A stretch of DNA of 64,000 bases from Candidatus Poribacteria bacterium (lineage in GTDB: Bacteria; Poribacteria; WGA-4E; WGA-3G), in NCBI GenBank assembly GCA_965214095.1, contig OZ243938.1, forward strand, positions 160,001-224,000, given 5' to 3'. The translations under genes and the position numbers were made by a program. Shown here piece by piece: positions 1 through 13,951 of this stretch. Below the pieces are notes generated by a model. It did no database searches. It worked only from the letters and a program-made list of their open reading frames with translations, and had not been told where the DNA came from. Position 1 is the first letter of the stretch; every line of letters starts with the position of its first letter.

Positions 1-3000
1 GTTATCACATCCGTTAGGCTACCATCTGATACAGTCAAGGTTACCTGATAACTGCTCTTATCTTCATAATCCAGCGCGGCTTTCGTCTGCAATCGTCTTG
101 TGTTGCTATTGAAACTAAACGCCGCTGCATCCGTACCACCAAACGTATACGTCAATGTTGTATTCGCATCTGGGTCAGTTACCGAAAAAGCAGCTCCAAA
201 CGCTGTCCCTGCTGAAGTGTTTTCAGCAACACTACGTATGGTACTATCACCTTCAGAAAACACCGGGGCTTCATTGACATTCGTCACATTGATCGTGACG
301 CTGATAGTATCTGTCAGGCTACCATCCGAAACAGTTACGGTAACTTCATACGCGTCGTCGTCTTCATAGTTTAAGGATGCACTTGTCTTGATTTGTCCTG
401 TTTTGTCATCAATTGCAAAGGATGATGCGTCCGTGCCACCCAGTTGATATGCAAGCGTTTCGCTATCCTCATCTGAAGCAGATACCGGATCACCGATGTT
501 TGCATCCGATGTTGTATTCTCTGCCACACTCCGAGTCGTCTCTGTACCATCAGAGAATTCCGGCGCAATGTTAGACGGTGTCTCATCTAAATCCCTAATA
601 GAAATACTCACAGCAATCGAATCGGTTAGACTATTATCCGAAACTTTAACCGTGACCGAATAGGACGATTTGGTCTCATAATCAAGGTATGCTTTCGTTT
701 TCAATTGACCCGTTGTTGATTCAATGTCAAACGATGCTTTATCATCTCCATCCAATGTGTATGTAAGCGTATCATTTTCAGGATCAGTCGCCGCGACTGC
801 ACTCCCAATGTTTACCCCCGTTGCAGTATTTTCTGTTATGGAGCGAGTCGTGCTTGTACCTGCTGTGAACGTGGGTGCTTCATTAACATCCACCACGTTG
901 ATGGTAACATTTATACTCGCACTGCCACCGTTGCTATCTGAAACAGAAACCGTGACTGCATAAGACGCTTTGGTTTCATAGTTCAACGCAGCACTGGTTT
1001 TCAATTGTCCAGTTGTGTCATCAATACTAAATGACGATGCATCTGTGCCACCGAGACTGTAGGTTAACGTGTCATTATCCTCATCTGTTGCCTCCACAGC
1101 AGTTCCAATACTCACATCAGTAGCAGTATTCTCATCAATAGAACGCGTGGCACTACTCCCTTCGCTGAACTCTGGAGCACTATTCGTTGTTTCATCTACA
1201 TCAGTGATTTTGATGGTTACAGTAATGGTATCTGTACCTTTATTACCATCAGAGACAGAGATTATAACCGTATAGGAACGTTTCGTTTCATAATCTAATG
1301 CTGCACTGGTCCGCAACTGTCCAGAGGAACTATCTATGCCAAAAGAGGAGGCATCCGTCCCACTAAGACTATAAGTCAGTGTGTCATCTTCATCCGCATC
1401 TGTAGCACCCACAGCAGTGCCGATATTCACTCCCGAAGCTGTGTTTTCTGCTACAGAACGCGTGGTCGTGTTTCCTTCAGTAAATGTCGGTGCTCTGTTG
1501 GGTACGTCAGTGTCCTTCGTTTCTGTTTCATCTTGAGTATCTTGGGGTTCAGTAGTCTCTTCATCTATATCAACCACATTGATCGTTACATTAATGCTGT
1601 CCGATAAAACTCCATCGGAGACAGTGATTGTCACCACATAAAAAGTTGTTGCTTCATAATCAAGTGCAGATTTCGTTTTGAGTTGTCCTGTGCTGGAATC
1701 TATATCAAACGCGCTGGCATCTGTGCCACCGAGGCTATAAGTGAGCGTATTGTTTTCTGCATCTGATGCCGTAATAGCAGTGCCAATATTTGTACCTGCT
1801 TCAGTGTTCTCATCCACTTCACGTGTGGTCGCAGTGCCATCAGCAAATACAGGAGCCGTATTTATAGTTTCAAAAATCTCTATCGGTAGGTCGTTAGATT
1901 TGGCAAACGCATATCCTGTATGTCCAATGGGTAGGATCGGGAGGCTACCAATATCAACGGTGACTGCAGCAAACGTGTTAGAAGCGCGCAATACCGTTAG
2001 CGGTAGACTTTCAATACTCCCAGCAGGAATCGTTATGGTAGTCACATTATCGGCAAGGTTACCACTCGTGACGGTGATCGGTAAGACTATATCTGATGGT
2101 GCACCACTCGGTAGGCTGGCTTTGAACATGTTTGTGCCAACTTTCTGTAATGAAATGGTGAACGGAAGTGGGTCAACGGTGTTACCACTCAAATCCAATG
2201 TTGTTAAAGAAGTCAAACCTACAAATATACCATCAGGCAGACTATCCAATTGGTTATTGCTCAAGTTAAGAGATGTAAGAGACAGCAATCCTGTGAAATC
2301 ATCTGAATTGAGAGTTGAAACTGACATACCGCTCATGTCCAGCGATGTAATTGTCGCAAGGTGAACATCCGATACGTTACGGCAATCATCAATACCTTGC
2401 AGGGCCTCTACAATCGCATCACTCACCTGGATCGTCCGGTTGCAAACAGTAGATTTCGCGAGAATATAACCGAAATGGTTAGCAGGTAACGTTGGCAATA
2501 CACCGATATTTACATCTGAGGTAGTAGCAGTAAATACAGCACTTTCAAGACTTCCTTTTGGTATGGTTGTCGATGTTATACTTGCACCATTGATCGATAA
2601 CTCAACATCAAAGGGTGCACCAGCAAATATGACCGCCTTGAACTGATTTACATCAACTTGTTGCAGTGAAACATTTAGCGGGAATGGGTCAATCTGGTTC
2701 CCACCTAAACGCAGATTTGTGAGAGATGTCAAACCATCAAAGATACCCACTGGTAGGCTGTTCAACATATTACCGTATAGGTTTAGATTTGTGAGACCTG
2801 TCAACCCAGAAAAGTCACCTGTTTTCAGTTCGGTAATCCCTGCGGAACGAAAGTCAAGTGAGGTGATTTCGGCAAGGTGTGTGTCGGTAATGTCTTCGGC
2901 ATCGTTCACACTCGAAACCGCTGCAACGATAGCGTCACGAACTTGTGCAGTGCGATCACTGACAGGTAGCACTGTAGAGACCAAGACAGTTTCGACCACG

Positions 3001-4019
3001 TCAATGACACCAATGATGACAGTAATTGTATCTGTCAGACTATCATCGGATACAGAAATAGTTACCGTGTAGACGCGTTTTGTTTCATAATCTAATGGTG
3101 CTTTTGTCTTCAACTGTCCAGTCGTAGAATCTATATCAAACGATGCGGCATCAATCCCACTTAGACTGTAGGTTAAATTATCCTCATCAGCATCTGTGGC
3201 AGAGACAGCACTGCCAATATTAGAATCTGCAGCTGTATTCTCTGCTATATAACGGATCGTGGTAGTACCATCAGAAAATTCAGGTGCACTGTTTTCTGGC
3301 GTTTCTAAAGTATCAGTCGTATCAGTCGTTTCTGTTATATCGGTAGTATCGGTTTCTGTTACAGCACTGATAACTTCAATCGGTAATGTATCAGGTTTTG
3401 TAAGGGTATAGCCGTAATGGTCTGTTGGTAAACTGGGTAAGGTCCCAATATTAACGGTTACAGCGGCGGTTGTGTCAGCGGTACGTGTGAGGGTCAACAA
3501 CGCACTACTATCTATACTACCTTTGGAAATCGTGAGTGTCGTTTCATCGTCTGAAACAGTGGCGTTAGCAGCACTGATCGGCACAACAATATCAAACGGT
3601 GCACCTGTCGGTACTACGACTTTGAATTGATCCTCACCGACCTTTTCAACTGTGACTGAAATCGGTAACGGATCCACAGCATTGCTACCCAAACGTAAAC
3701 TCGTCAGTGAGGTTAAACCTTCGAATATTCCATTGGGTAGACTACTAAGTTCATTATTATACAAGTTAAGACTTGTCAATCCTGTCAAACCAGAAAAGTC
3801 ACCGAATTTCAATTCCGTAATTGCTTTGTTGCGAAGGTTTAAACTCGTTATTTCCGCTAAATGTGTCGCGGTAACCTCCGTAGCGGAATCTACCCCAGTT
3901 GTTGCAACAATAGCATCACGCACTTCAGATGTCCGATCTGCTACTGGCAAAATCTCTGTCTCCCCTCTCACTCCGATACAAACAAGCAATAAACAAATGA
4001 CTGAAATTAGGTATCTCAA
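1..4019 (-). CDS. Large secreted LRR + cadherin-repeat surface protein (3' end runs off the window)
   Basis: Missing from the ORF track, apparently because its stop lies outside the window. Read by hand: RBS GAGGGGAG, then TTG at 4019, signal-like MRYLISVICLLLVCIGVRG. Three LRR modules (e.g. HLAEITSLNLRNKAITELKFGDFSGLTGLTSLNLYNNELSSLPNGIFEGLTSLTSLRL) and at least 7 cadherin-like repeats (NxAPxFxEG...LDYE...VTVSDG). The frame at position 5 matches the start frame. Confidence 0.85.
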   Translation of the reverse strand, partial: MRYLISVICLLLVCIGVRGETEILPVADRTSEVRDAIVATTGVDSATEVTATHLAEITSLNLRNKAITELKFGDFSGLTGLTSLNLYNNELSSLPNGIFEGLTSLTSLRLGSNAVDPLPISVTVEKVGEDQFKVVVPTGAPFDIVVPISAANATVSDDETTLTISKGSIDSSALLTLTRTADTTAAVTVNIGTLPSLPTDHYGYTLTKPDTLPIEVISAVTETDTTDITETTDTTDTLETPENSAPEFSDGTTTIRYIAENTAADSNIGSAVSATDADEDNLTYSLSGIDAASFDIDSTTGQLKTKAPLDYETKRVYTVTISVSDDSLTDTITVIIGVIDVVETVLVSTVLPVSDRTAQVRDAIVAAVSSVNDAEDITDTHLAEITSLDFRSAGITELKTGDFSGLTGLTNLNLYGNMLNSLPVGIFDGLTSLTNLRLGGNQIDPFPLNVSLQQVDVNQFKAVIFAGAPFDVELSINGASITSTTIPKGSLESAVFTATTSDVNIGVLPTLPANHFGYILAKSTVCNRTIQVSDAIVEALQGIDDCRNVSDVHLATITSLDMSGMSVSTLNSDDFTGLLSLTSLNLSNNQLDSLPDGIFVGLTSLTTLDLSGNTVDPLPFTISLQKVGTNMFKASLPSGAPSDIVLPITVTSGNLADNVTTITIPAGSIESLPLTVLRASNTFAAVTVDIGSLPILPIGHTGYAFAKSNDLPIEIFETINTAPVFADGTATTREVDENTEAGTNIGTAITASDAENNTLTYSLGGTDASAFDIDSSTGQLKTKSALDYEATTFYVVTITVSDGVLSDSINVTINVVDIDEETTEPQDTQDETETKDTDVPNRAPTFTEGNTTTRSVAENTASGVNIGTAVGATDADEDDTLTYSLSGTDASSFGIDSSSGQLRTSAALDYETKRSYTVIISVSDGNKGTDTITVTIKITDVDETTNSAPEFSEGSSATRSIDENTATDVSIGTAVEATDEDNDTLTYSLGGTDASSFSIDDTTGQLKTSAALNYETKASYAVTVSVSDSNGGSASINVTINVVDVNEAPTFTAGTSTTRSITENTATGVNIGSAVAATDPENDTLTYTLDGDDKASFDIESTTGQLKTKAYLDYETKSSYSVTVKVSDNSLTDSIAVSISIRDLDETPSNIAPEFSDGTETTRSVAENTTSDANIGDPVSASDEDSETLAYQLGGTDASSFAIDDKTGQIKTSASLNYEDDDAYEVTVTVSDGSLTDTISVTINVTNVNEAPVFSEGDSTIRSVAENTSAGTAFGAAFSVTDPDANTTLTYTFGGTDAAAFSFNSNTRRLQTKAALDYEDKSSYQVTLTVSDGSLTDVI

Positions 4020-4262
4020 AAGCTTCTCCCCTCAATTTTGACATTTACTGCAAACAGATAAATAAATGTCAATTAGCAAATAAAAATGTTTATCTAATCA
4101 ATATATCCTCGCTATAAATACATATTAAGTATTTTATTTTGTAATTTATTATTCTCTTATTATAATATGTCTTAACATGTAAATTATATACGTTTTTAAT
4201 TTAAATGCAAATAATATTTTGTAAATACGTAAAGTTTATGAAATGAAAAAGATGGGAACTCT

Positions 4263-4374
4263 TGTAGGAAGGGGTTGCTAACCCGCCTGTCAAAATATTC
4301 GTAGTTGCGCAATTCATTACGCCTCTGACATTATCCTGAAAATCTAATAATCCTGAAAATCCTGGTTCAGACAA
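4263..4374. repeat. Composite cluster of REP-like repeats
   Basis: TGTAGGAAGGGGTTGCTAACCCGCCT (4263-4288), CGTAGTTGCGCAATTCATTACGCCTCT (4300-4326), and ATCCTGAAAATC twice followed by CTGGTTCAGACAA (4333-4374). Related copies occur elsewhere in the window. Confidence 0.7.
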
Positions 4375-4475
4375 AAAGAATGTCCCTAAATTGCCACTAT
4401 ACAGATTCCTTGCAAAAAATCCTATTTTGTGATAGTATGGAGATTAAAATAATACATGCATTGAGACATTCCAAA

Positions 4476-7400
4476 ATGAATTCAACAAAAGATATTATCA
4501 GCCGTTGCCATCAACGACACAATGACCCGCTACGACAACGCAAAACAGTCGTTACACCTGCCATCTACAAAGGCATATTAAATCACTACACAGTCTATTG
4601 TGCACACAGCCTACCCATCAGGCTTCACGATTTAGAACGGGCAAATATATCCTTCATGCCCGTAGGCGGGGCACCAACTTATGACCGAATGCCACAATCT
4701 TACGGCGGTGACCGTTTCTTGAAACGACAAGGAATAGAAAGTTGGGATATCAGAAACTGGCATACTTCCTGGGGTATTCAAGTATATACCGGCATGCCTT
4801 CAGAACTAAACGGTAGCACATGGCACGACTTGGAATTTACATATCAGGCTATCTGCAATGCACCAGAAACGGTGCTTGAATGTGTTGATACTTTGGTCAA
4901 TTTCGTTGCTAACCCATTATTAACAATCACAAAATCCGGTGGACTACGTTTTACATGCAGAATTGAGAATTATCTGCATCAAAATACACATACAGATCGC
5001 TTTTACGTATATCAGGATAAAGTAACTCCTGAAAATCAACATCAACGTGAAGTATACCTTGAAATACTTGGAAAGGAAGGACATAGTGCATGGGATGCGC
5101 GTTACGAGATACTGTTCGGAAACCTTCTGGACCCACCTGTGATCGAAAAAGAGGTATTCTTGGCAGCAATTAATACCCTTCGACAGGCTCTCCACCAACC
5201 CTCATCCAGAGAAAAAACTGATGAAAACCTTGAGTTATTGCCGACAAATATCGTTTCACCGTTTTCACTAAGTTCACAAAAATTGGATCTCGCCAAGGAA
5301 ACACTTTTAGCTCGAGGATTCGTATATCTCCGTAAAGAAGAAAATATCCACCATTGGACGAAACACAATACAGAAAGTTCCGACACAGATGTATTGTTAT
5401 GGGAACATGGCAGTAACGTATGGATACGCGCAGCGAACCCAAATAGCGGCGTACCGACTGAAGATACGCAAATTACTGATATATGGGACGATACCGGAAT
5501 CTTACCACAGATACCCGAAAACGGGTTGCCAGTGTCTACACAGATCCAGGAAATTCGTGATCGTAGACTCACGCCATTAGTCATTAAACGTCCCAATCAA
5601 GTGCTGGAGAAGTCGGAGAAAGAAGAGAAACAAACCATAACAGCCGCTGATGCTATCTCACAAATACAACACGCTTTTGAAAACGATATTAGTATAGCTG
5701 GAATTAACGCCGCGGATACTGCAAAAAGAAACAATTACGCGGTTGAAACGCTTTTGCTTCAACATTCTCCAATCATATTGAGTTCACAAACACGTATATT
5801 AAATGGAGCAACCGAACATTTTCAGAACCAAAACATACCTTCAGTCATAAGGTGGAGACGATACCGATATTTATGGAATGAGGTAAAAGATATACCCGTT
5901 GCTACACGCATGAAAGCACCTTTCAAAAACGGAAATGTATGTGAAGACGCTGAACGATGCGGCACTTTGAAAAACAAAGGTGTGAACCCCACTCAGACAA
6001 TCTGCCTACAGTGTCCTGTATATACAACATGTCAGCAACACGGATACCTATCACAATACAAAATACTACAAAACGCAAACATTCAGCTTATTGCCAGTCC
6101 AGAACACTTTTTAGATCCAGCACGCTACGGATTTGTTGAGGATATCATAAGACACAGCAACGACTCAGAACGAATCTGCATCATTGACGATATGAGTACA
6201 GATGATCTCTTCATAAATTGTTATGTCGGTTTATCTACATTAAAGAAATGGAATAATGATTGGGAAGGAGAGCCTTTAGGTAACTTCACACGCGCTTTGC
6301 TCAATACGCTACAAATGAAAGGTGGACCCGACGATCTACTTGTTCAAAGAATACGCACACTGATGCACGCATTTCTACCTTATCAGGAACAGATTACTCA
6401 GCAGATGCGTCAAGTCAATTTGAACTGCAGAATACTTAAAGAAAGAACAATCGATGAAAAAGACAAAACAGTTCTTGCACAATATAAAATCGTGTTTGAA
6501 AACGATGTCACTGCACATATCCCGATAAACGATGCCGCCGCTGATAGACTCAGAGCATTGGAACGTACTGTGCTTCCTATAGATATAGAACACTATACAC
6601 CCAACAAGGACATCAAAGTCCAAATCCCAATAGAACAAGCAATACGATTAGGTATATTAGATATATCAACACCAGAGAAGATATACGATATACCCACAAC
6701 CTATCAGAATCCGGAATGGACATTGTGGCATCAACTCAAACGATTCTTTGCACACTACGCTCGGAATACAGACGCTCCAATGATGTGGTACAACAATTGC
6801 CTAAATTTCTGGGTTCCGCCAATTCTTCACCCAAACATAAAAAAACTTCTTGTCATATCACCAACGGTCTCTGAACATGATTTACAGAGAGTATTCCAGA
6901 ATGAAAAAATAAAGGTGGAAAAAATAAAACCTACACCTTGGGCAGAAGGAACACAAGTTTTTCAAATTCGCACTGGAATTCATTGGATCAAAACGATGTT
7001 AGACCATGATACCACTTGGGATGTTCTCGGACTCACAAACATTGGTAAACGGTTTATGCAAGGTATCTGTGCTGAAATCCAAAGAAGCAAGAACACTAAA
7101 CATGCAATTATCTCATACCAGCCGATCATAGACCAATTAAATGACCTTACATCAGAAGATAACATGTGTGTAGCAATGACTTTCGAAAACGCAGCTCGTT
7201 TAGAAACCTTCGACACAGATATACAAGTCCTATGGCTTGTCGGAACGCCATCTTGGCAACCAAATTTAACATGGAGACACGCACAAATACTTTACGGAAA
7301 TGATGAAAAACCACTATCCTATGACACTGATATACATTTCCAACAACACAAAGACCCGCGTCTTCAGCACGTGTATTTACAAAGAATTACTCACTCCATC

Positions 7401-7883
7401 ACAGATATTCTCGGAAAGATAGGATTGAGCCACCTGCCGAACAAAAAGGTTGTCCTGATTAATAGTATTCAAATACCAAACATCACCGATAGACCCGAAA
7501 CTTTACTTTTCGATTGGGAAGATTTCGAGATTGCAGGTAATCTTGACAAACTCGCAGAAACAATCGCTATACGACAAAAGTTTGAAACTGAACGAGCCAA
7601 CCTAACTGCAGACTGCAGCAGAGAAAAAGTCGAACGGATTGTAGGTTGTTCCTCCAGACAAGCGAACCGTATATTACAGCAACTTCGTGGTGGGAATATA
7701 CCGCACATAACCTATCGTGAGCAAATACTATCACTGCTTACAGAGGGTGAGAAAAAGGCATCTGATATAACAGAGGCAATTGAAGGTAATCCAACATCAA
7801 TAAATAATGAACTCGCACGACTACTCAAGATTGGTGAGATTATTAAGGTCCGTTGGGGTGTATACACTCTTCCCAATGAATAA
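4476..7883 (+). CDS. Large hypothetical protein; degenerate Prim-Pol + SF2-helicase-like + C-terminal HTH/wHTH
   Basis: ORF 4380..7883; ATG 4476 preferred because a TTGCAA/GATAGT promoter-like element lies just upstream. Motifs: WGIQVYTG...WHDLEF...TKSGGLRF; Cys cluster CEDAERC...CLQCPVYTTC; RICIIDD; terminal wHTH ending ...INNELARLLKIGEIIKVRWGVY. Confidence 0.6.
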   Translation: MNSTKDIISRCHQRHNDPLRQRKTVVTPAIYKGILNHYTVYCAHSLPIRLHDLERANISFMPVGGAPTYDRMPQSYGGDRFLKRQGIESWDIRNWHTSWGIQVYTGMPSELNGSTWHDLEFTYQAICNAPETVLECVDTLVNFVANPLLTITKSGGLRFTCRIENYLHQNTHTDRFYVYQDKVTPENQHQREVYLEILGKEGHSAWDARYEILFGNLLDPPVIEKEVFLAAINTLRQALHQPSSREKTDENLELLPTNIVSPFSLSSQKLDLAKETLLARGFVYLRKEENIHHWTKHNTESSDTDVLLWEHGSNVWIRAANPNSGVPTEDTQITDIWDDTGILPQIPENGLPVSTQIQEIRDRRLTPLVIKRPNQVLEKSEKEEKQTITAADAISQIQHAFENDISIAGINAADTAKRNNYAVETLLLQHSPIILSSQTRILNGATEHFQNQNIPSVIRWRRYRYLWNEVKDIPVATRMKAPFKNGNVCEDAERCGTLKNKGVNPTQTICLQCPVYTTCQQHGYLSQYKILQNANIQLIASPEHFLDPARYGFVEDIIRHSNDSERICIIDDMSTDDLFINCYVGLSTLKKWNNDWEGEPLGNFTRALLNTLQMKGGPDDLLVQRIRTLMHAFLPYQEQITQQMRQVNLNCRILKERTIDEKDKTVLAQYKIVFENDVTAHIPINDAAADRLRALERTVLPIDIEHYTPNKDIKVQIPIEQAIRLGILDISTPEKIYDIPTTYQNPEWTLWHQLKRFFAHYARNTDAPMMWYNNCLNFWVPPILHPNIKKLLVISPTVSEHDLQRVFQNEKIKVEKIKPTPWAEGTQVFQIRTGIHWIKTMLDHDTTWDVLGLTNIGKRFMQGICAEIQRSKNTKHAIISYQPIIDQLNDLTSEDNMCVAMTFENAARLETFDTDIQVLWLVGTPSWQPNLTWRHAQILYGNDEKPLSYDTDIHFQQHKDPRLQHVYLQRITHSITDILGKIGLSHLPNKKVVLINSIQIPNITDRPETLLFDWEDFEIAGNLDKLAETIAIRQKFETERANLTADCSREKVERIVGCSSRQANRILQQLRGGNIPHITYREQILSLLTEGEKKASDITEAIEGNPTSINNELARLLKIGEIIKVRWGVYTLPNE

Positions 7884-8181: not shown

Positions 8182-8210
8182 TTGACATGCCATCAACAAT
8201 ATCGTATAAT
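8182..8210 (+). promoter_or_regulatory. Sigma70 consensus promoter
   Basis: TTGACA-17 nt-TATAAT, followed by the palindrome CTTAATTAATTAAG; lies upstream of the 8243 gene. Confidence 0.85.
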
Positions 8211-8242: not shown

Positions 8243-9409
8243 ATGACAAACTATCGCGTAGCAATACTCGGCTGTCGAAGTCGTGGCACATCCGCGGCAA
8301 AGGCATATCATGCACATCCCCGCACAGAGATTGTAGCACTTTGTGATCTCGTTCAGGACAGGTTAGATGCACTCGGAAAAATTGTCAATGTATCTACTCA
8401 TTTCACAGATTTGGATGAGATGATTACACAGACAAAGCCGGACATCGTTGCTATTCCCACAGCAACTGAAATGCACTATCCGCTCTGTATGCGTGTACTT
8501 GAACATGGCGTAAACATTGAAGTCGAAAAACCCTTATGTGCAGACTTAGTTCAAGCAGATGCAGTTATCGCAAAAGCGAAGCAGAAAAATGCACGTGTTG
8601 TTGTCCATCATCAAAGACGTGTAAGTCCTACAATACAAGCTGTTGCCAATTCCCTTGACGAAGGTAAAATTGGTGAATTGCGTTATATGTACGCATGTGG
8701 AAAAGGATATTATGCTGGCTACGGATTGATGAATATCGGCACACATGTAGTCAACAATATGCTCCGATTTGGTGGTCATTGCAAAAGTGTTGTTACCCAA
8801 GCGACAGCAGGCGGACGCGAACTTATACCTGAAGATGTCCTACAATCACCCGCAGGTATGGGGACAGTCACTGCAGAATACACTACCTCAACACTACAAT
8901 TTGATGGTAATGTAACTGGTACTCTCATTCAACAAAGGTTTCCTATCGTCAGTAGTGATGCGTACGTTTTAGAACTCTATGGAAGCGAAGGAAGATTGTT
9001 CTGGTCTGAATTGAAAGGAGCATGGTGGTTACCGACCCCTCACTTTGTTCCTGATGGCACACACGACAAATGGGAGAGACTCACGCCGATCTATCCTGAT
9101 CATTTTGATAGTGACAAAGGGGCAGATGCTGACGATTATTGCATGGTAGATGAATATGTTAATGCTTTGGACGAAAAGCGAGAACATGAATGCAGTGGCG
9201 AAGAAGGTCGTCATGTTATGGAGATTTTAATGGCAGTTTTTGAGTCTGCAGTTTATGGAACGCGTGTAAAATTACCGCAGCAGAATCGCGAACACCCCTT
9301 AATCCGATGGCGCGAAGAAAACGGTCTCGGTCCACTTAAAGAAATGCCACGTGATTACGGTTCATGGTTATCAATGGAAGACGAACGTTTATATGGACAA
9401 AATAAGTAG
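8243..9409 (+). CDS. Gfo/Idh/MocA family oxidoreductase
   Basis: Rossmann start YRVAILGCRSRG, VEKPL motif, LMNIGTH; GGAG RBS before ATG 8243. Confidence 0.9.
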   Translation: MTNYRVAILGCRSRGTSAAKAYHAHPRTEIVALCDLVQDRLDALGKIVNVSTHFTDLDEMITQTKPDIVAIPTATEMHYPLCMRVLEHGVNIEVEKPLCADLVQADAVIAKAKQKNARVVVHHQRRVSPTIQAVANSLDEGKIGELRYMYACGKGYYAGYGLMNIGTHVVNNMLRFGGHCKSVVTQATAGGRELIPEDVLQSPAGMGTVTAEYTTSTLQFDGNVTGTLIQQRFPIVSSDAYVLELYGSEGRLFWSELKGAWWLPTPHFVPDGTHDKWERLTPIYPDHFDSDKGADADDYCMVDEYVNALDEKREHECSGEEGRHVMEILMAVFESAVYGTRVKLPQQNREHPLIRWREENGLGPLKEMPRDYGSWLSMEDERLYGQNK

Positions 9410-12739: not shown

Positions 12740-12930
12740 GTCAATAACCCCGTGCTAAAGCATCGGGGCTTGTGCGAAGCGCATGCCAAGCGTTCACTCC
12801 ACAAGTTAAACTATTTTCTACAGTCATATATCGGGTGTTCTGAACGTGGCAGTCCAATGTATGTTTCGGATGCTCCCCAAGTCCGATTCCTCTACGAATA
12901 CCCGATCTGGATGGGGCAATATATACTCTT
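12740..12930 (+). ncRNA. omegaRNA (OMEGA/HEARO-like) scaffold
   Basis: Stems CTTGTG/CACAAG, ATCGGGTGTTC(12830-40)/GAATACCCGAT(12896-906) and TCGGA/TCCGA. The loop CCCCA is complementary to TGGGG(12912-16), giving a pseudoknot. Located between the element end and isrB. The 3' boundary is approximate. Confidence 0.8.
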
Positions 12931-12943
12931 CGGAGGTTTACAC

Positions 12944-13951
12944 ATCTTAGTTCCAGTAGTAGACAAAAATCAACACCCTCTCATGCCTACAAAACCCTCA
13001 CGGGCGAGGCGTTGGATACAAACAGGGAAAGCGACACCCTTTTGGAATAATGGTATATTTTGCGTCCGACTCAATGTTGATCCATCAGACACTGAACTCC
13101 AAGACATAGTGGTTGGTGTGGATCCTGGTAGTAAGAAAGAAGGCTTTAGTGTGAAATCAGAGAAAAGGACTTATCTGAATGTGCAAGCGGACGCACATAA
13201 CAAGGTTGGTAAAAAGGTTGAAAAAAGACGTGAACTTCGTAGATGTAGGCGTTCACGGAAGTGTCCTAATCGGAAAAATAGGACAAACAAACTTGCTAAC
13301 AGAGAACGTCTACCTGCTGGCACGCGTGCGAGATGGGATTGGAAGTTAAGGGTACTTAATTGGTTATCTAAACTCTATCCTATTAGTCATGTATGTGTAG
13401 AAGACATCAAAGCACGGACTATCAAACGCGCTAAAAAGTGGAATCAATCTTTTAGTCCATTGGAAGTTGGTAAGCAGTGGTTCTATACTGAAATCAAGAA
13501 GCGATGGCACCTGCTAACACTCCAAGGATACGAAACAAAGGAAATCCGTGATAGGCTTGGGTTGAAAAAGTCTAAACAGAAGTTAGCAGAAACCTTTGAC
13601 ACACATTGTGTGGATAGTTGGTGTCTTGCTTATCATACTGTCGGCGGTGATAGCATACCAGATACGACAGATATATTCTGTATATCACCCATACCGATAG
13701 CCAGACGCAATCTACACAGAGAACAACCGAAAAAAGGGGGTATCCGTTCACGATATGGTGGCACTTTGCTAAAAGAAGGATTGGTCAAGAACACACTTGT
13801 CAAGCATATCAAATATGGATTGACAAGATTAGCAGGTGTCAACGCAAAAGGATTGTTTTCAATCTATAGCATTGATGGGGAACGATTGACAACGGGTGCA
13901 AAACAAAGAGATTTCAAGGTGTTAACTAAACTAAACTTTCAATATAGATAG
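12944..13951 (+). CDS. isrB: IsrB RNA-guided nickase (PLMP/RRXRR + split RuvC, no HNH)
   Basis: VPVVDKNQHPLMPT (PLMP), GVDPGSK (RuvC-I), RRELRRCRRSRK (bridge helix), CVEDI (RuvC-II), THCVDS (RuvC-III); no HNH between RuvC-II and III; about 335 aa from the ATC placed after GGAGG. Confidence 0.88.
   Translation: MLVPVVDKNQHPLMPTKPSRARRWIQTGKATPFWNNGIFCVRLNVDPSDTELQDIVVGVDPGSKKEGFSVKSEKRTYLNVQADAHNKVGKKVEKRRELRRCRRSRKCPNRKNRTNKLANRERLPAGTRARWDWKLRVLNWLSKLYPISHVCVEDIKARTIKRAKKWNQSFSPLEVGKQWFYTEIKKRWHLLTLQGYETKEIRDRLGLKKSKQKLAETFDTHCVDSWCLAYHTVGGDSIPDTTDIFCISPIPIARRNLHREQPKKGGIRSRYGGTLLKEGLVKNTLVKHIKYGLTRLAGVNAKGLFSIYSIDGERLTTGAKQRDFKVLTKLNFQYR

Follow-up and report, generated by a model that had tools for sequence, protein, structure and literature searches.

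A multi-copy chromosomal protein family of Poribacteria joining a primase-polymerase domain to an XPD-like helicase body with an eroded ATP site

The gene at 4476..7883 and its domains

The DNA considered here is a stretch of 64,000 nucleotides (the window) from Candidatus Poribacteria bacterium, a sponge symbiont, positions 160,001 to 224,000 of contig OZ243938.1 in assembly GCA_965214095.1. The element in question is a forward-strand gene at 4476..7883, of 1,135 codons plus stop, whose product contains in order a primase-polymerase (Prim-Pol) domain, a small alpha/beta domain, an XPD-like pseudo-helicase, a helix-turn-helix (HTH) and a winged HTH (wHTH). The original prediction, made from the letters of the sequence, had proposed a Prim-Pol/helicase fusion kept after losing catalysis and perhaps derived from a plasmid or phage replication initiator. 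With somewhat more confidence than doubt the gene can be read as a member of a chromosomal, Poribacteria-restricted multi-copy family that came from the replication initiator of a plasmid or integrative element, with a dead motor and a complete Prim-Pol site. The folds, the descent, the dead motor and the selection on the gene may be regarded as settled.

The gene lies in an open frame at 4380-7883 (+), and its start is placed at the Met codon at 4476, giving 1,135 amino acids (aa), because all 120 homologs listed align from that Met, covering 92-98%, most of them being 1,130-1,140 aa long; the start and the roughly 1,135 intact codons first proposed are so borne out. Every string from which the domains had been read is present in the protein, namely ISFMPV (59-64), WGIQVYTG (99-106), WHDLEFT (116-122), ITKSGGLRF (151-159) and LEILG (195-199) in the N-terminal part, AADTAKRN (412-419), IIDD (569-572) and ISPT (794-797) in the middle, and the cysteines C489, C495, C510, C513 and C519 followed by GYLSQ. 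Scans of the whole protein with Pfam, NCBIfam, PHROGs and PADLOC gave nothing above threshold and sub-threshold wHTH matches only, while phmmer against PDB sequences gave no match and a profile search there returned wHTH chains and a marginal XPD match only. An AlphaFold2 model of the whole protein, built from a 66-row alignment, has a mean predicted local distance difference test score (pLDDT) of 85.8 and a predicted template modelling score (pTM) of 0.75, and the domain-by-domain structural check that had been suggested recovered in the models both the archaeo-eukaryotic primase (AEP) fold and an XPD-type RecA-like fold.

The AEP primase-polymerase domain occupies 4548..5204 (+; aa 25-243). 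From a separate model of residues 1-345 (pLDDT 86.3), VIA-align places residues 38-243 on pRN1 ORF904 (1ro2_A, Z 11.8, root-mean-square deviation (rmsd) 3.5 Å, 174 aa; 3m1m, Z 11.5), then on the NrS-1 Prim-Pol (6a9w, Z 8.1) and on LigD polymerase domains (Z 4.7-5.6), the best unrelated row having Z 5.9, and Foldseek finds 1rni with E 6.7e-3 and probability 1.00. The bifunctional primase-polymerase originally read at the N-terminus is thereby confirmed as a fold.

A survey of AEPs (PMC5862659) defines their motifs as hhhDhD/E (I), sxH (II) and hD/E (III), and PMC2965215 gives the pRN1 catalytic centre as D111, E113, H145 and D171; at these residues pRN1 reads ILDFES, HGGIH and IIDLQ, where the present protein has, in the same order, WHDLEF, SGGLR and YLEIL. 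Motif I is D118-L-E120 (TWHDLEF; 4827..4835, +) on the strand 114-121, the counterpart of pRN1 D111-F-E113. D118 is kept in 124/124 homologs, which at position 120 have 61 times E, 44 times D, 15 times H and 4 times another residue (acidic in 105/124). Since D-x-E matches pRN1 D111/E113, and is a canonical form of hhhDhD/E, motif I is not an altered DxD, and to count it as a defect was mistaken. Motif II is G155-G156-L-R158 (SGGLR; 4938..4949, +; strand 157-164) where pRN1 has HGGIH, with G155 and R158 in 124/124 homologs. The replacement of its histidine by arginine had been seen correctly but is not the sign of a dead site, being a variant known from DR0530-like AEPs: in PMC5862659 the motif II histidine is family-specific, with Arg or Lys in DR0530-like and Gln in PolpTN2- and RepB'-like AEPs. 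The motif III acid is E196 (YLEIL; 5061..5063, +; strand 190-198; pRN1 IIDLQ), which is E in 117/124 homologs. Both R158 and E196 are found in all 12 distant relatives aligned, including ones with intact helicase motifs, and so are not losses peculiar to the family with a dead helicase.

A conserved nucleotide-contacting arginine after motif III is described as motif IV of the PrimPol-PV1 supergroup in the same source. The candidate here is R209 in WDARYE (206-211; 5091..5108, +), 13 residues after motif III and kept in 123/124 homologs and in 40/40 rows of the N-domain alignment; it is placed in this putative role by the positional parallel with RepB' and PrimPol-PV1 and not by superposition. 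All five residues (D118, E120, R158, E196, R209) are present in this copy and in 97/124 homologs. The contrast with the helicase is marked, as the Walker A lysine survives in 5/124 homologs. With a D-x-E as in pRN1, a motif III acid within hD/E and a known variant at R158, the idea of a catalytically dead Prim-Pol finds no support. It is likely that the site still binds metal and nucleotide, and it may well have kept its catalytic competence in the present copy.

A flexible linker (5211..5273, +; aa 246-266; pLDDT below 50 at 246-258) leads to the small alpha/beta domain at 5274..5510 (+; aa 267-345). This stands in the place of a Cys/His zinc ribbon of the relatives, which reads C..TKH..SHGA..(Y/F)CHNC, and the ligands are lost. 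Its fold matches are weak (KA1 domains Z 5.0-5.9, the T4 primosome chain 8dvf_H Z 5.2, Twinkle Z 4.4).

The body of the protein (5634..7562, +; aa 387-1029) is a superfamily 2 (SF2) helicase of XPD/Rad3/DinG type, carrying the cysteine-cluster insertion and a further insertion between motifs II and III. VIA-align places residues 387-1029 of the model on residues 5-611 of Thermoplasma XPD (4a15_A) with Z 15.3, rmsd 5.3 Å and 471 residues aligned. XPD chains align over 471-495 residues and several generic SF2 cores (WRN, UvrB, BLM) over 254-283, far shorter spans, and so the body is specifically XPD-like, insertions included. Foldseek against the PDB returns XPD, Rad3/TFIIH-XPD, DinG, CasDinG and DdmD (best 9p55, E 2.7e-10), and a profile of the relatives aligns the first cysteine of the cluster to an XPD cysteine at a marginal E of about 0.1. 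The SF2-like remnants picked out in the middle region were therefore rightly placed, the fold being that of XPD and the quoted strings falling on the TGxGK, DExxH and MSAT columns of the relatives.

What remains of the ATP site is little. Walker A is eroded to AADTAKRNNY (412-421; 5709..5738, +), where relatives have A(D/E)TGxGK(D/N/T)Y; the GxGK[TSDN] P-loop occurs in 4/124 close homologs and is absent from the present copy. Walker B/DEAH is IIDDMSTD (569-576; 6180..6203, +) against (V/I)DE(A/V)xxH in relatives, with DE in 25/124 homologs and DD here. Motif III survives as ISPT (794-797; 6855..6866, +) for MSAT, and motif VI as TDILGKIGLSH (976-986; 7401..7433, +) for QAxGRARLNR, both arginines being replaced (K981, H986). 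The family mostly keeps GRAGLNR in motif VI (G-R in 90/124, R986 in 116/124), from which the present copy departs, and all three helicase motifs occur together in 4/124 homologs. The loss of catalysis originally claimed thus holds for the helicase ATPase, with Walker A, Walker B and motif VI all eroded, and does not extend to the Prim-Pol; judged by these motifs, the helicase of the present copy can no longer bind or hydrolyse ATP. The four-cysteine cluster between motifs I and II (C489, C510, C513 and C519, plus C495; 5940..6032, +) has fared quite differently from the Walker A lysine: the four are kept in 124/124 homologs, and are the sole invariant columns in the 66/66 rows of the wide alignment. 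The metal they would hold may be either 4Fe-4S or Zn.

The C-terminus (7620..7868, +) carries an HTH at about 1049-1070 and a winged HTH at about 1080-1131. The model has helices at 1049-1070, then at 1080-1119 with a hairpin at 1123-1131, giving a three-helix HTH followed by a three-helix unit with a beta hairpin. Profile matches are weak: Pfam HTH_5 (ArsR-type) reaches 17.4 bits (E 0.0041), below its curated cut-off of 22 bits, MarR/ArsR-type PDB chains match with E 0.002-0.04, and AbiEi_4 (PF13338) is annotated in 11/120 homologs listed. Secondary structure and profiles together lend support to the HTH plus winged HTH proposed at the outset.

Distribution, selection and descent of the family

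The family appears restricted to Poribacteria and is multi-copy and chromosomal. In 121 genomes sampled across the phylum, with the present protein as query and matches taken at E<=1e-10, 64 have a match, all in one family (28/31 in genus g1, 35/45 in genus g2); this query gave no match in the other three genera of that family (0/5) or in seven other families (0/39). Genomes of the two genera hold anything from no copy to at least 15, and tandem pairs occur. The count of paralogs that had been proposed as a check gave ten family loci in the present genome (G000), of which nine are long copies and one is a fragment, with 41-50% identity to the present copy; seven of the long copies are open, another carries a frameshift and the last a TGA. 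In the genome G099 three copies with identical scores were taken for an assembly artefact and dropped, lying in 100% identical 14.5-kb stretches at the ends of two contigs. Homologs are named in their sources only 'hypothetical protein, Candidatus Poribacteria', searches on Poribacteria primases found no literature description of the family, and it appears to be undescribed.

Selection was assessed by the Nei-Gojobori ratio of nonsynonymous to synonymous substitution (dN/dS) on 15 pairs, the closest that 20 full-length copies offer (72-83% identity, dS 0.36-1.1), and is 0.15-0.24 over these pairs. Between the present copy and its counterpart in the genome G018, dN is 0.30 and dS 1.59, which is near saturation, for a ratio of about 0.19; purifying selection, for which the original prediction had proposed a test, therefore acts on the family and on this copy alike. 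By domain the ratio is lowest in the HTH tail (0.09-0.13), followed by the Prim-Pol (0.10-0.23) and the second helicase lobe, HD2 (0.13-0.24), with 0.11-0.42 in the cysteine-cluster region, 0.11-0.50 in the ATP-site lobes and 0.25-0.72 in the linker at 246-266. The G+C content of the gene is 0.409, that of the genome 0.411.

One branch of the family is peculiar. The copy with the TGA, c2673k (G000:C1:2673454-2676834; in L069 the TGA is at 8468-8470, minus strand), has counterparts in L112-L115 and L117-L120, and the in-frame TGA stands at the same codon in 9/9 branch copies from 7 genomes, which are 65-75% identical with dS of about 0.9-1.9; in 18/20 other family copies that codon is TGG (Trp). 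These copies have no other stop in about 1,127 codons, with dN/dS of 0.12-0.23 upstream and 0.11-0.16 downstream of the TGA, and the context CGC-TGA-AAA-CC together with the next, hairpin-forming 17 nucleotides (nt) (TACCTG TGGGAG CAGGT) is identical in all nine. The branch looks like a case of programmed readthrough or recoding, or of a deliberately split gene, rather than a pseudogene. Weighing against this, RNAalifold on the TGA context gave no covarying pair and Rfam no match, and only 7/9 copies have an ATG four codons downstream of the TGA. Selenocysteine was set aside, as the TGA replaces a Trp codon and not Cys; the genome does have SelA.

More distant relatives were collected by phmmer over 1.84 billion cluster representatives, which gave 441 at E<=1e-3. 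The distant ones, at 24-33% identity, align over the middle and C-terminus and carry A(D/E)TGxGK(D/N/T), (V/I)DE(A/V)xxH, MSAT and QxxGRARLxR; some have BT4734-like_N plus PriCT_2 in place of the N-domain, and the N-domain of the family is also found fused to DUF3987 (P0261). A FastTree of 48 rows, midpoint-rooted for drawing only, makes the 1,135-aa family one clade (support 100) next to P-loop-positive relatives that share its N-domain. Inside the clade the P-loop-positive members (c3053k, L024 and two L025 genes) are scattered, so that the label needs at least 4 changes on the tree, which argues that the motor was lost repeatedly. The ancestral layout would have been a Prim-Pol-type AEP, a zinc ribbon, an XPD/DinG-like four-cysteine SF2 helicase and an HTH/winged HTH.

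In a scan of species-representative genomes the version with intact motifs was found at 8 loci, 7 of them in Poribacteria metagenome-assembled genomes (MAGs). Three of these MAG loci have long flanks, and two of the three divergently adjoin a gene for a ParA-type ATPase. One of these two has in addition a phage integrase, a DDE transposase of an insertion sequence (IS) and a type I restriction subunit, and the third locus (L028) lies near a SIR2 and NACHT pair. That the family goes back to a replicon-type primase-polymerase/helicase/winged-helix protein, as originally suggested, is upheld by these intact-motif relatives with the same N-domain and by the ParA genes. The ParA and integrase context fits descent from a poribacterial plasmid or integrative element, the sample being small. 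The present protein found no match by tblastn in plasmid and phage collections; the relative P0197 matches plasmids only through its BT4734/PriCT part, and the XPD-like module was not found in those collections. Two of the loci of relatives and members deserve a note of their own. At L028 1-3495 (-), at a distance of 3.4 kb from the intact-motif relative, adjacent genes encode a SIR2_2 protein and a NACHT/STAND NTPase, which look like a candidate defence pair. At L025 2339-16682, on a Poribacteria chromosome, four family genes stand in a row (775, 788, 1,164 and 1,135 aa), two of the four keeping an intact P-loop, and an IS605-type TnpB lies between the first and the second.

Neighbouring genes and the possible role of the family

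Upstream, the gene shares a divergent AT-rich intergenic region (4020..4475; 28% G+C) with the first of an array of giant leucine-rich repeat (LRR) and cadherin-repeat genes, which stands head-to-head with it at 3..4019 (-) and runs off the window (Pfam Cadherin E 1.8e-80, LRR_8 E 5.4e-31). Shared upstream signals were sought and rejected. A 34-nt element at 4301-4334 (+), at first a candidate for a family-specific element, is a dispersed repeat of the repetitive extragenic palindromic (REP) type (GTAG..GCGCAATTCATTGCGC..), of which the main contig has 162 copies at no more than 7 mismatches; another REP core, GGTTAGGAAACC, which lies upstream of four other family copies, has 802 copies at no more than 1 mismatch, and both occur genome-wide without being peculiar to the family. 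The region 4020-4475 is not alignable with the upstream region of the ortholog, and six family upstream regions have no common motif beyond AT-rich words, so that, with the REP repeat, a conserved upstream element or noncoding RNA was discarded. Promoter-like sites in the divergent region number 12 against 13.4 expected from shuffles, and terminators are likewise not above shuffles.

Downstream lies a GFO/IDH/MocA gene. A sigma-70-like site matching 12/12 (TTGACA, 17 nt spacer, TATAAT) is seen at 8182-8210 (+), 21 bases upstream of it, so that this gene probably has a promoter of its own and is transcribed apart from the family gene. Farther on, a 399-aa open reading frame (ORF) at 12752-13951 (+) has an RRXRR domain (PF14239, E 1.5e-34); RRXRR-domain proteins are HNH/IscB-like and often tied to IS200/IS605-type elements. 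The remark that no mobile genes flank the gene is hence right within about 4.8 kb and needs qualifying for this ORF and for the REP-type repeat. Terminal repeats, an integrase and a transposase were looked for at the present locus and not found. An empty-site test could define neither a clean empty site nor a target duplication, homology within the genus ending at the start of the GFO gene with different genes upstream.

As the most likely mechanism, the HTH/wHTH tail would place the protein on specific DNA, the XPD-like body would act there as a passive single-strand or fork clamp and not as a motor, and the Prim-Pol domain would bind nucleotide and metal and probably still make short DNA or RNA.

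Several observations weigh against an initiator-derived family with a complete Prim-Pol site. The AEP motif equivalences rest on pattern, spacing and strand position, not on residue-level superposition, and when the N-domain profile is compared by hhalign with pRN1 as a single sequence the probability is 0.1. Part of the five-residue set is missing in 27/124 homologs, and of the nine long copies in the genome c2673k, c3053k, c4780k and c4860k have no second motif I acid and c2120k, as a fifth, no motif III acid; the family as a whole therefore does not depend on AEP catalysis. The present gene lacks the zinc ribbon that follows the AEP in relatives, and such modules aid template binding in other primases. 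In-frame stops occur in 18 of the 150 family matches listed. The history of the locus has to be counted here as well. Orthologs of the downstream GFO/IDH/MocA gene, 80-97% identical, are present in 37/39 other genomes of the genus, yet among the flanks of 29 that were fetched (four with under 900 bases upstream) the family gene is found only in G092. There, in the closest genome sampled, with a neighbour gene 97% identical, it is a 122-codon 3' remnant, 94% identical, at L064 (G092:C2) 1261-1626, which is a recent truncation, and the present copy is dispensable on short time scales. The best full-length counterpart, in G018, is 58% identical over the whole protein (tree support 100) and also adjoins a giant opposite-strand ORF. 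From this counterpart and the G092 remnant it follows that the present copy was inherited within the genus, evolves fast and is readily lost.

An unlikely alternative, to which some weight must nevertheless be given, is that both enzymatic modules are inert and that the protein is purely a DNA-binding regulator, acting through its HTH/wHTH at a shared divergent promoter region; in this genus it would then control itself and the adjoining giant LRR-cadherin array of surface-protein genes. In its favour, the HTH tail is the most constrained part of the protein. Among the 3,393 ORF-genes of this genome 28 were flagged as LRR-cadherin-like, and only four genes have a divergent LRR-cadherin neighbour within 1.5 kb, all four being family members: the present copy (c164k), the fragment at 2184 kb, c1753k and c2120k. 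Opposite a fifth copy stands a Big_1/Invasin gene at the head of a cadherin array, and a sixth lies 6.2 kb from an array head. The arrays themselves are at 128.7-164.0, 1093-1108, 1757-1773, 2124-2154, 2174-2184 and 2998-3047 kb of G000:C1, with genes of up to about 4,700 aa; of about 12 array heads, 4 to 6 have a family gene head-to-head with them. Among 19 family loci in three further genomes of the genus, 3 lie within about 1 kb of an array head and one more at 2.7 kb.

Elsewhere the partner changes. Of 20 sampled loci (15 other genomes, 17/20 in the sister genus, taken in listing order with two contig-edge rows and four inner tandem members skipped), 17 have a divergent upstream neighbour, which again would suit a regulator, but a cadherin-like ORF lies within 8 kb at just one and is not adjacent. 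The 20 nearest upstream ORFs (one or two a locus) at 18 of these loci are a mixture by Pfam, with LRR in 2, LTD in 1, Laminin_G_3 in 3 and Peptidase_C25 in 1, the remainder being housekeeping or without a family, and the gene upstream of c1089k is not the one found upstream of its ortholog in G035 (83% identical). LRR-cadherin matches number 115-231 per genome in this genus and 3-10 in the sister genus, and the cadherin link was given up as a family-wide rule, being largely confined to the genus rich in such genes. Within that genus the link is a lead and not a result, because a single inherited synteny, or a few, may account for the paired loci, and genomes that are related do not count as independent. 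The lack of a motif shared by the six upstream regions also speaks against a regulator, as does the keeping of AEP catalytic-type residues far better than the helicase ones, for which a pure regulator would have no need.

It is quite improbable that the family is a slowly decaying remnant of integrated selfish replicons, without host function and turned over by duplication and loss. The spread of copy numbers, the tandem pairs, the in-frame stops, the frameshifted locus and the fragment among the ten in this genome, the truncated copy in G092 and the four genes grouped with TnpB at L025 would all be expected of such a remnant. Against this, dN/dS stays low family-wide and towards the G018 ortholog, there at a dS of about 1.6, the 1,135 codons remain open at 41-60% identity between copies, base composition equals that of the genome, and the locus has neither terminal repeats, integrase or transposase nor a match in plasmid or phage collections.

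A role in defence or incompatibility, in which ATPase-dead Rep copies would either sense foreign DNA or bind the origins of incoming plasmids dependent on the intact relative and so stop their replication, is given only a slim chance. Intact relatives in the same phylum do lie beside ParA and defence genes (SIR2 with NACHT, type I restriction-modification), the defence helicases CasDinG and DdmD are among the nearest solved folds, an AbiEi-type wHTH is present in some homologs, and lineage-specific expansion with rapid turnover resembles that of defence families. However, a PADLOC-DB 2.0 scan of the protein gave no significant match to any defence model, only wHTH matches to CasR and CARF3 (E 0.037 and 0.071), and PHROGs gave none; conservation is highest in the DNA-binding tail, where an arms race would lead one to expect the most variation; and the nearest ORFs scanned around the other nine loci of this genome hold no defence gene save a Type ISP enzyme adjoining c4780k.

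The least probable proposal, very doubtful as it stands, is that the family is a locus-tethered DNA-synthesis device on the adjoining LRR-cadherin arrays, an HTH-guided active Prim-Pol held by a motor-less XPD clamp, of which a sub-branch may also use programmed UGA decoding, and which, if true, might start replication locally, promote gene conversion or reshuffle repeats, and in this way vary the host-contact surface of a symbiont.

The interest of the family, read as initiator-derived with a dead motor, is that of a natural dissection. Primase-polymerase/helicase/winged-helix fusions are the replication engines of many plasmids and viruses, and here one lineage keeps such a replication protein in the chromosome, in many copies, with paralogs at 41-50% identity. 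The ATP motor has gone repeatedly, and what has been retained is the primase site, the DNA-binding tail and the cysteine cluster. This raises the question of what in a primase-helicase stays useful without unwinding. The array link, if functional, would point to a novel means by which uncultured sponge symbionts regulate or vary their surface proteins.

Comparison with known primases and helicases

The closest likeness in overall plan is to pRN1 ORF904 (PDB 1rni/1ro2/3m1m), which like the family holds a primase-polymerase, an NTPase-type module and a winged helix in one polypeptide. The motif I D-x-E is common to both, and GG-h-(H/R) and then h-h-(D/E)-h follow in the same order, with His145 and Asp171 in pRN1 where the present protein has Arg158 and Glu196. 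The helicase of ORF904 belongs to superfamily 3, in contrast to the XPD-like SF2 body here. According to PMC2965215, pRN1 requires a helix-bundle domain after its Prim-Pol, a place taken in the present protein by the small alpha/beta domain. ORF904 is an active plasmid replicase, whereas the present gene is chromosomal, multi-copy and ATPase-dead.

With XPD, Rad3 and DinG (4a15/9p55; CasDinG, DdmD) the body shares a whole-chain fold match, four cysteines between motifs I and II and an insertion before motif III, and the XPD-like motifs DExxH, SAT and QxxGRxxR are kept in distant relatives of the family. Unlike the XPD family the present copy has no Walker A, DE or either of the motif VI arginines, and it is fused to AEP and HTH domains; its cysteine spacing is compact (x20, x2, x5), and in sequence it resembles XPD no more than marginally (profile E about 0.1). 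The main text of the 2018 AEP survey (PMC5862659), supplements apart, makes no mention of XPD, Rad3 or DinG. The joining of an AEP to an XPD-like iron-sulfur helicase is the first such pairing found, no earlier description having been found in the literature.

For the altered motif II two partial parallels can be drawn. In PMC5862659 the DR0530-like AEPs are, outside the PrimPol-PV1 families described there, the only AEP family without the motif II histidine, with Arg or Lys instead, and Arg158 shares that motif state; the likeness is one of motif description alone. In RepB' of RSF1010, according to PMC8567376, three acids and R145, 11 residues after D134, form the nucleotide pocket, and R145A nearly abolishes priming. 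The present E196 and R209 are 13 residues apart to the 11 of D134 and R145, an equivalence by position only, and RepB' is not among the fold matches listed for the N-domain.

The mobile-element proteins of AEP-ZnBD/PriCT-helicase-WH type in PMC5862659 have the same order of primase, Zn-binding/PriCT module, helicase of varying class and winged helix. PrimPol-PV1 and its neighbours there combine a relaxed motif II histidine with a conserved arginine after motif III, to which Arg158 and the candidate R209 would correspond here, and DUF3987 is listed there as a fusion partner, as it is of the family N-domain in P0261. Unlike those systems, the present family is chromosomal, expanded and motor-dead.

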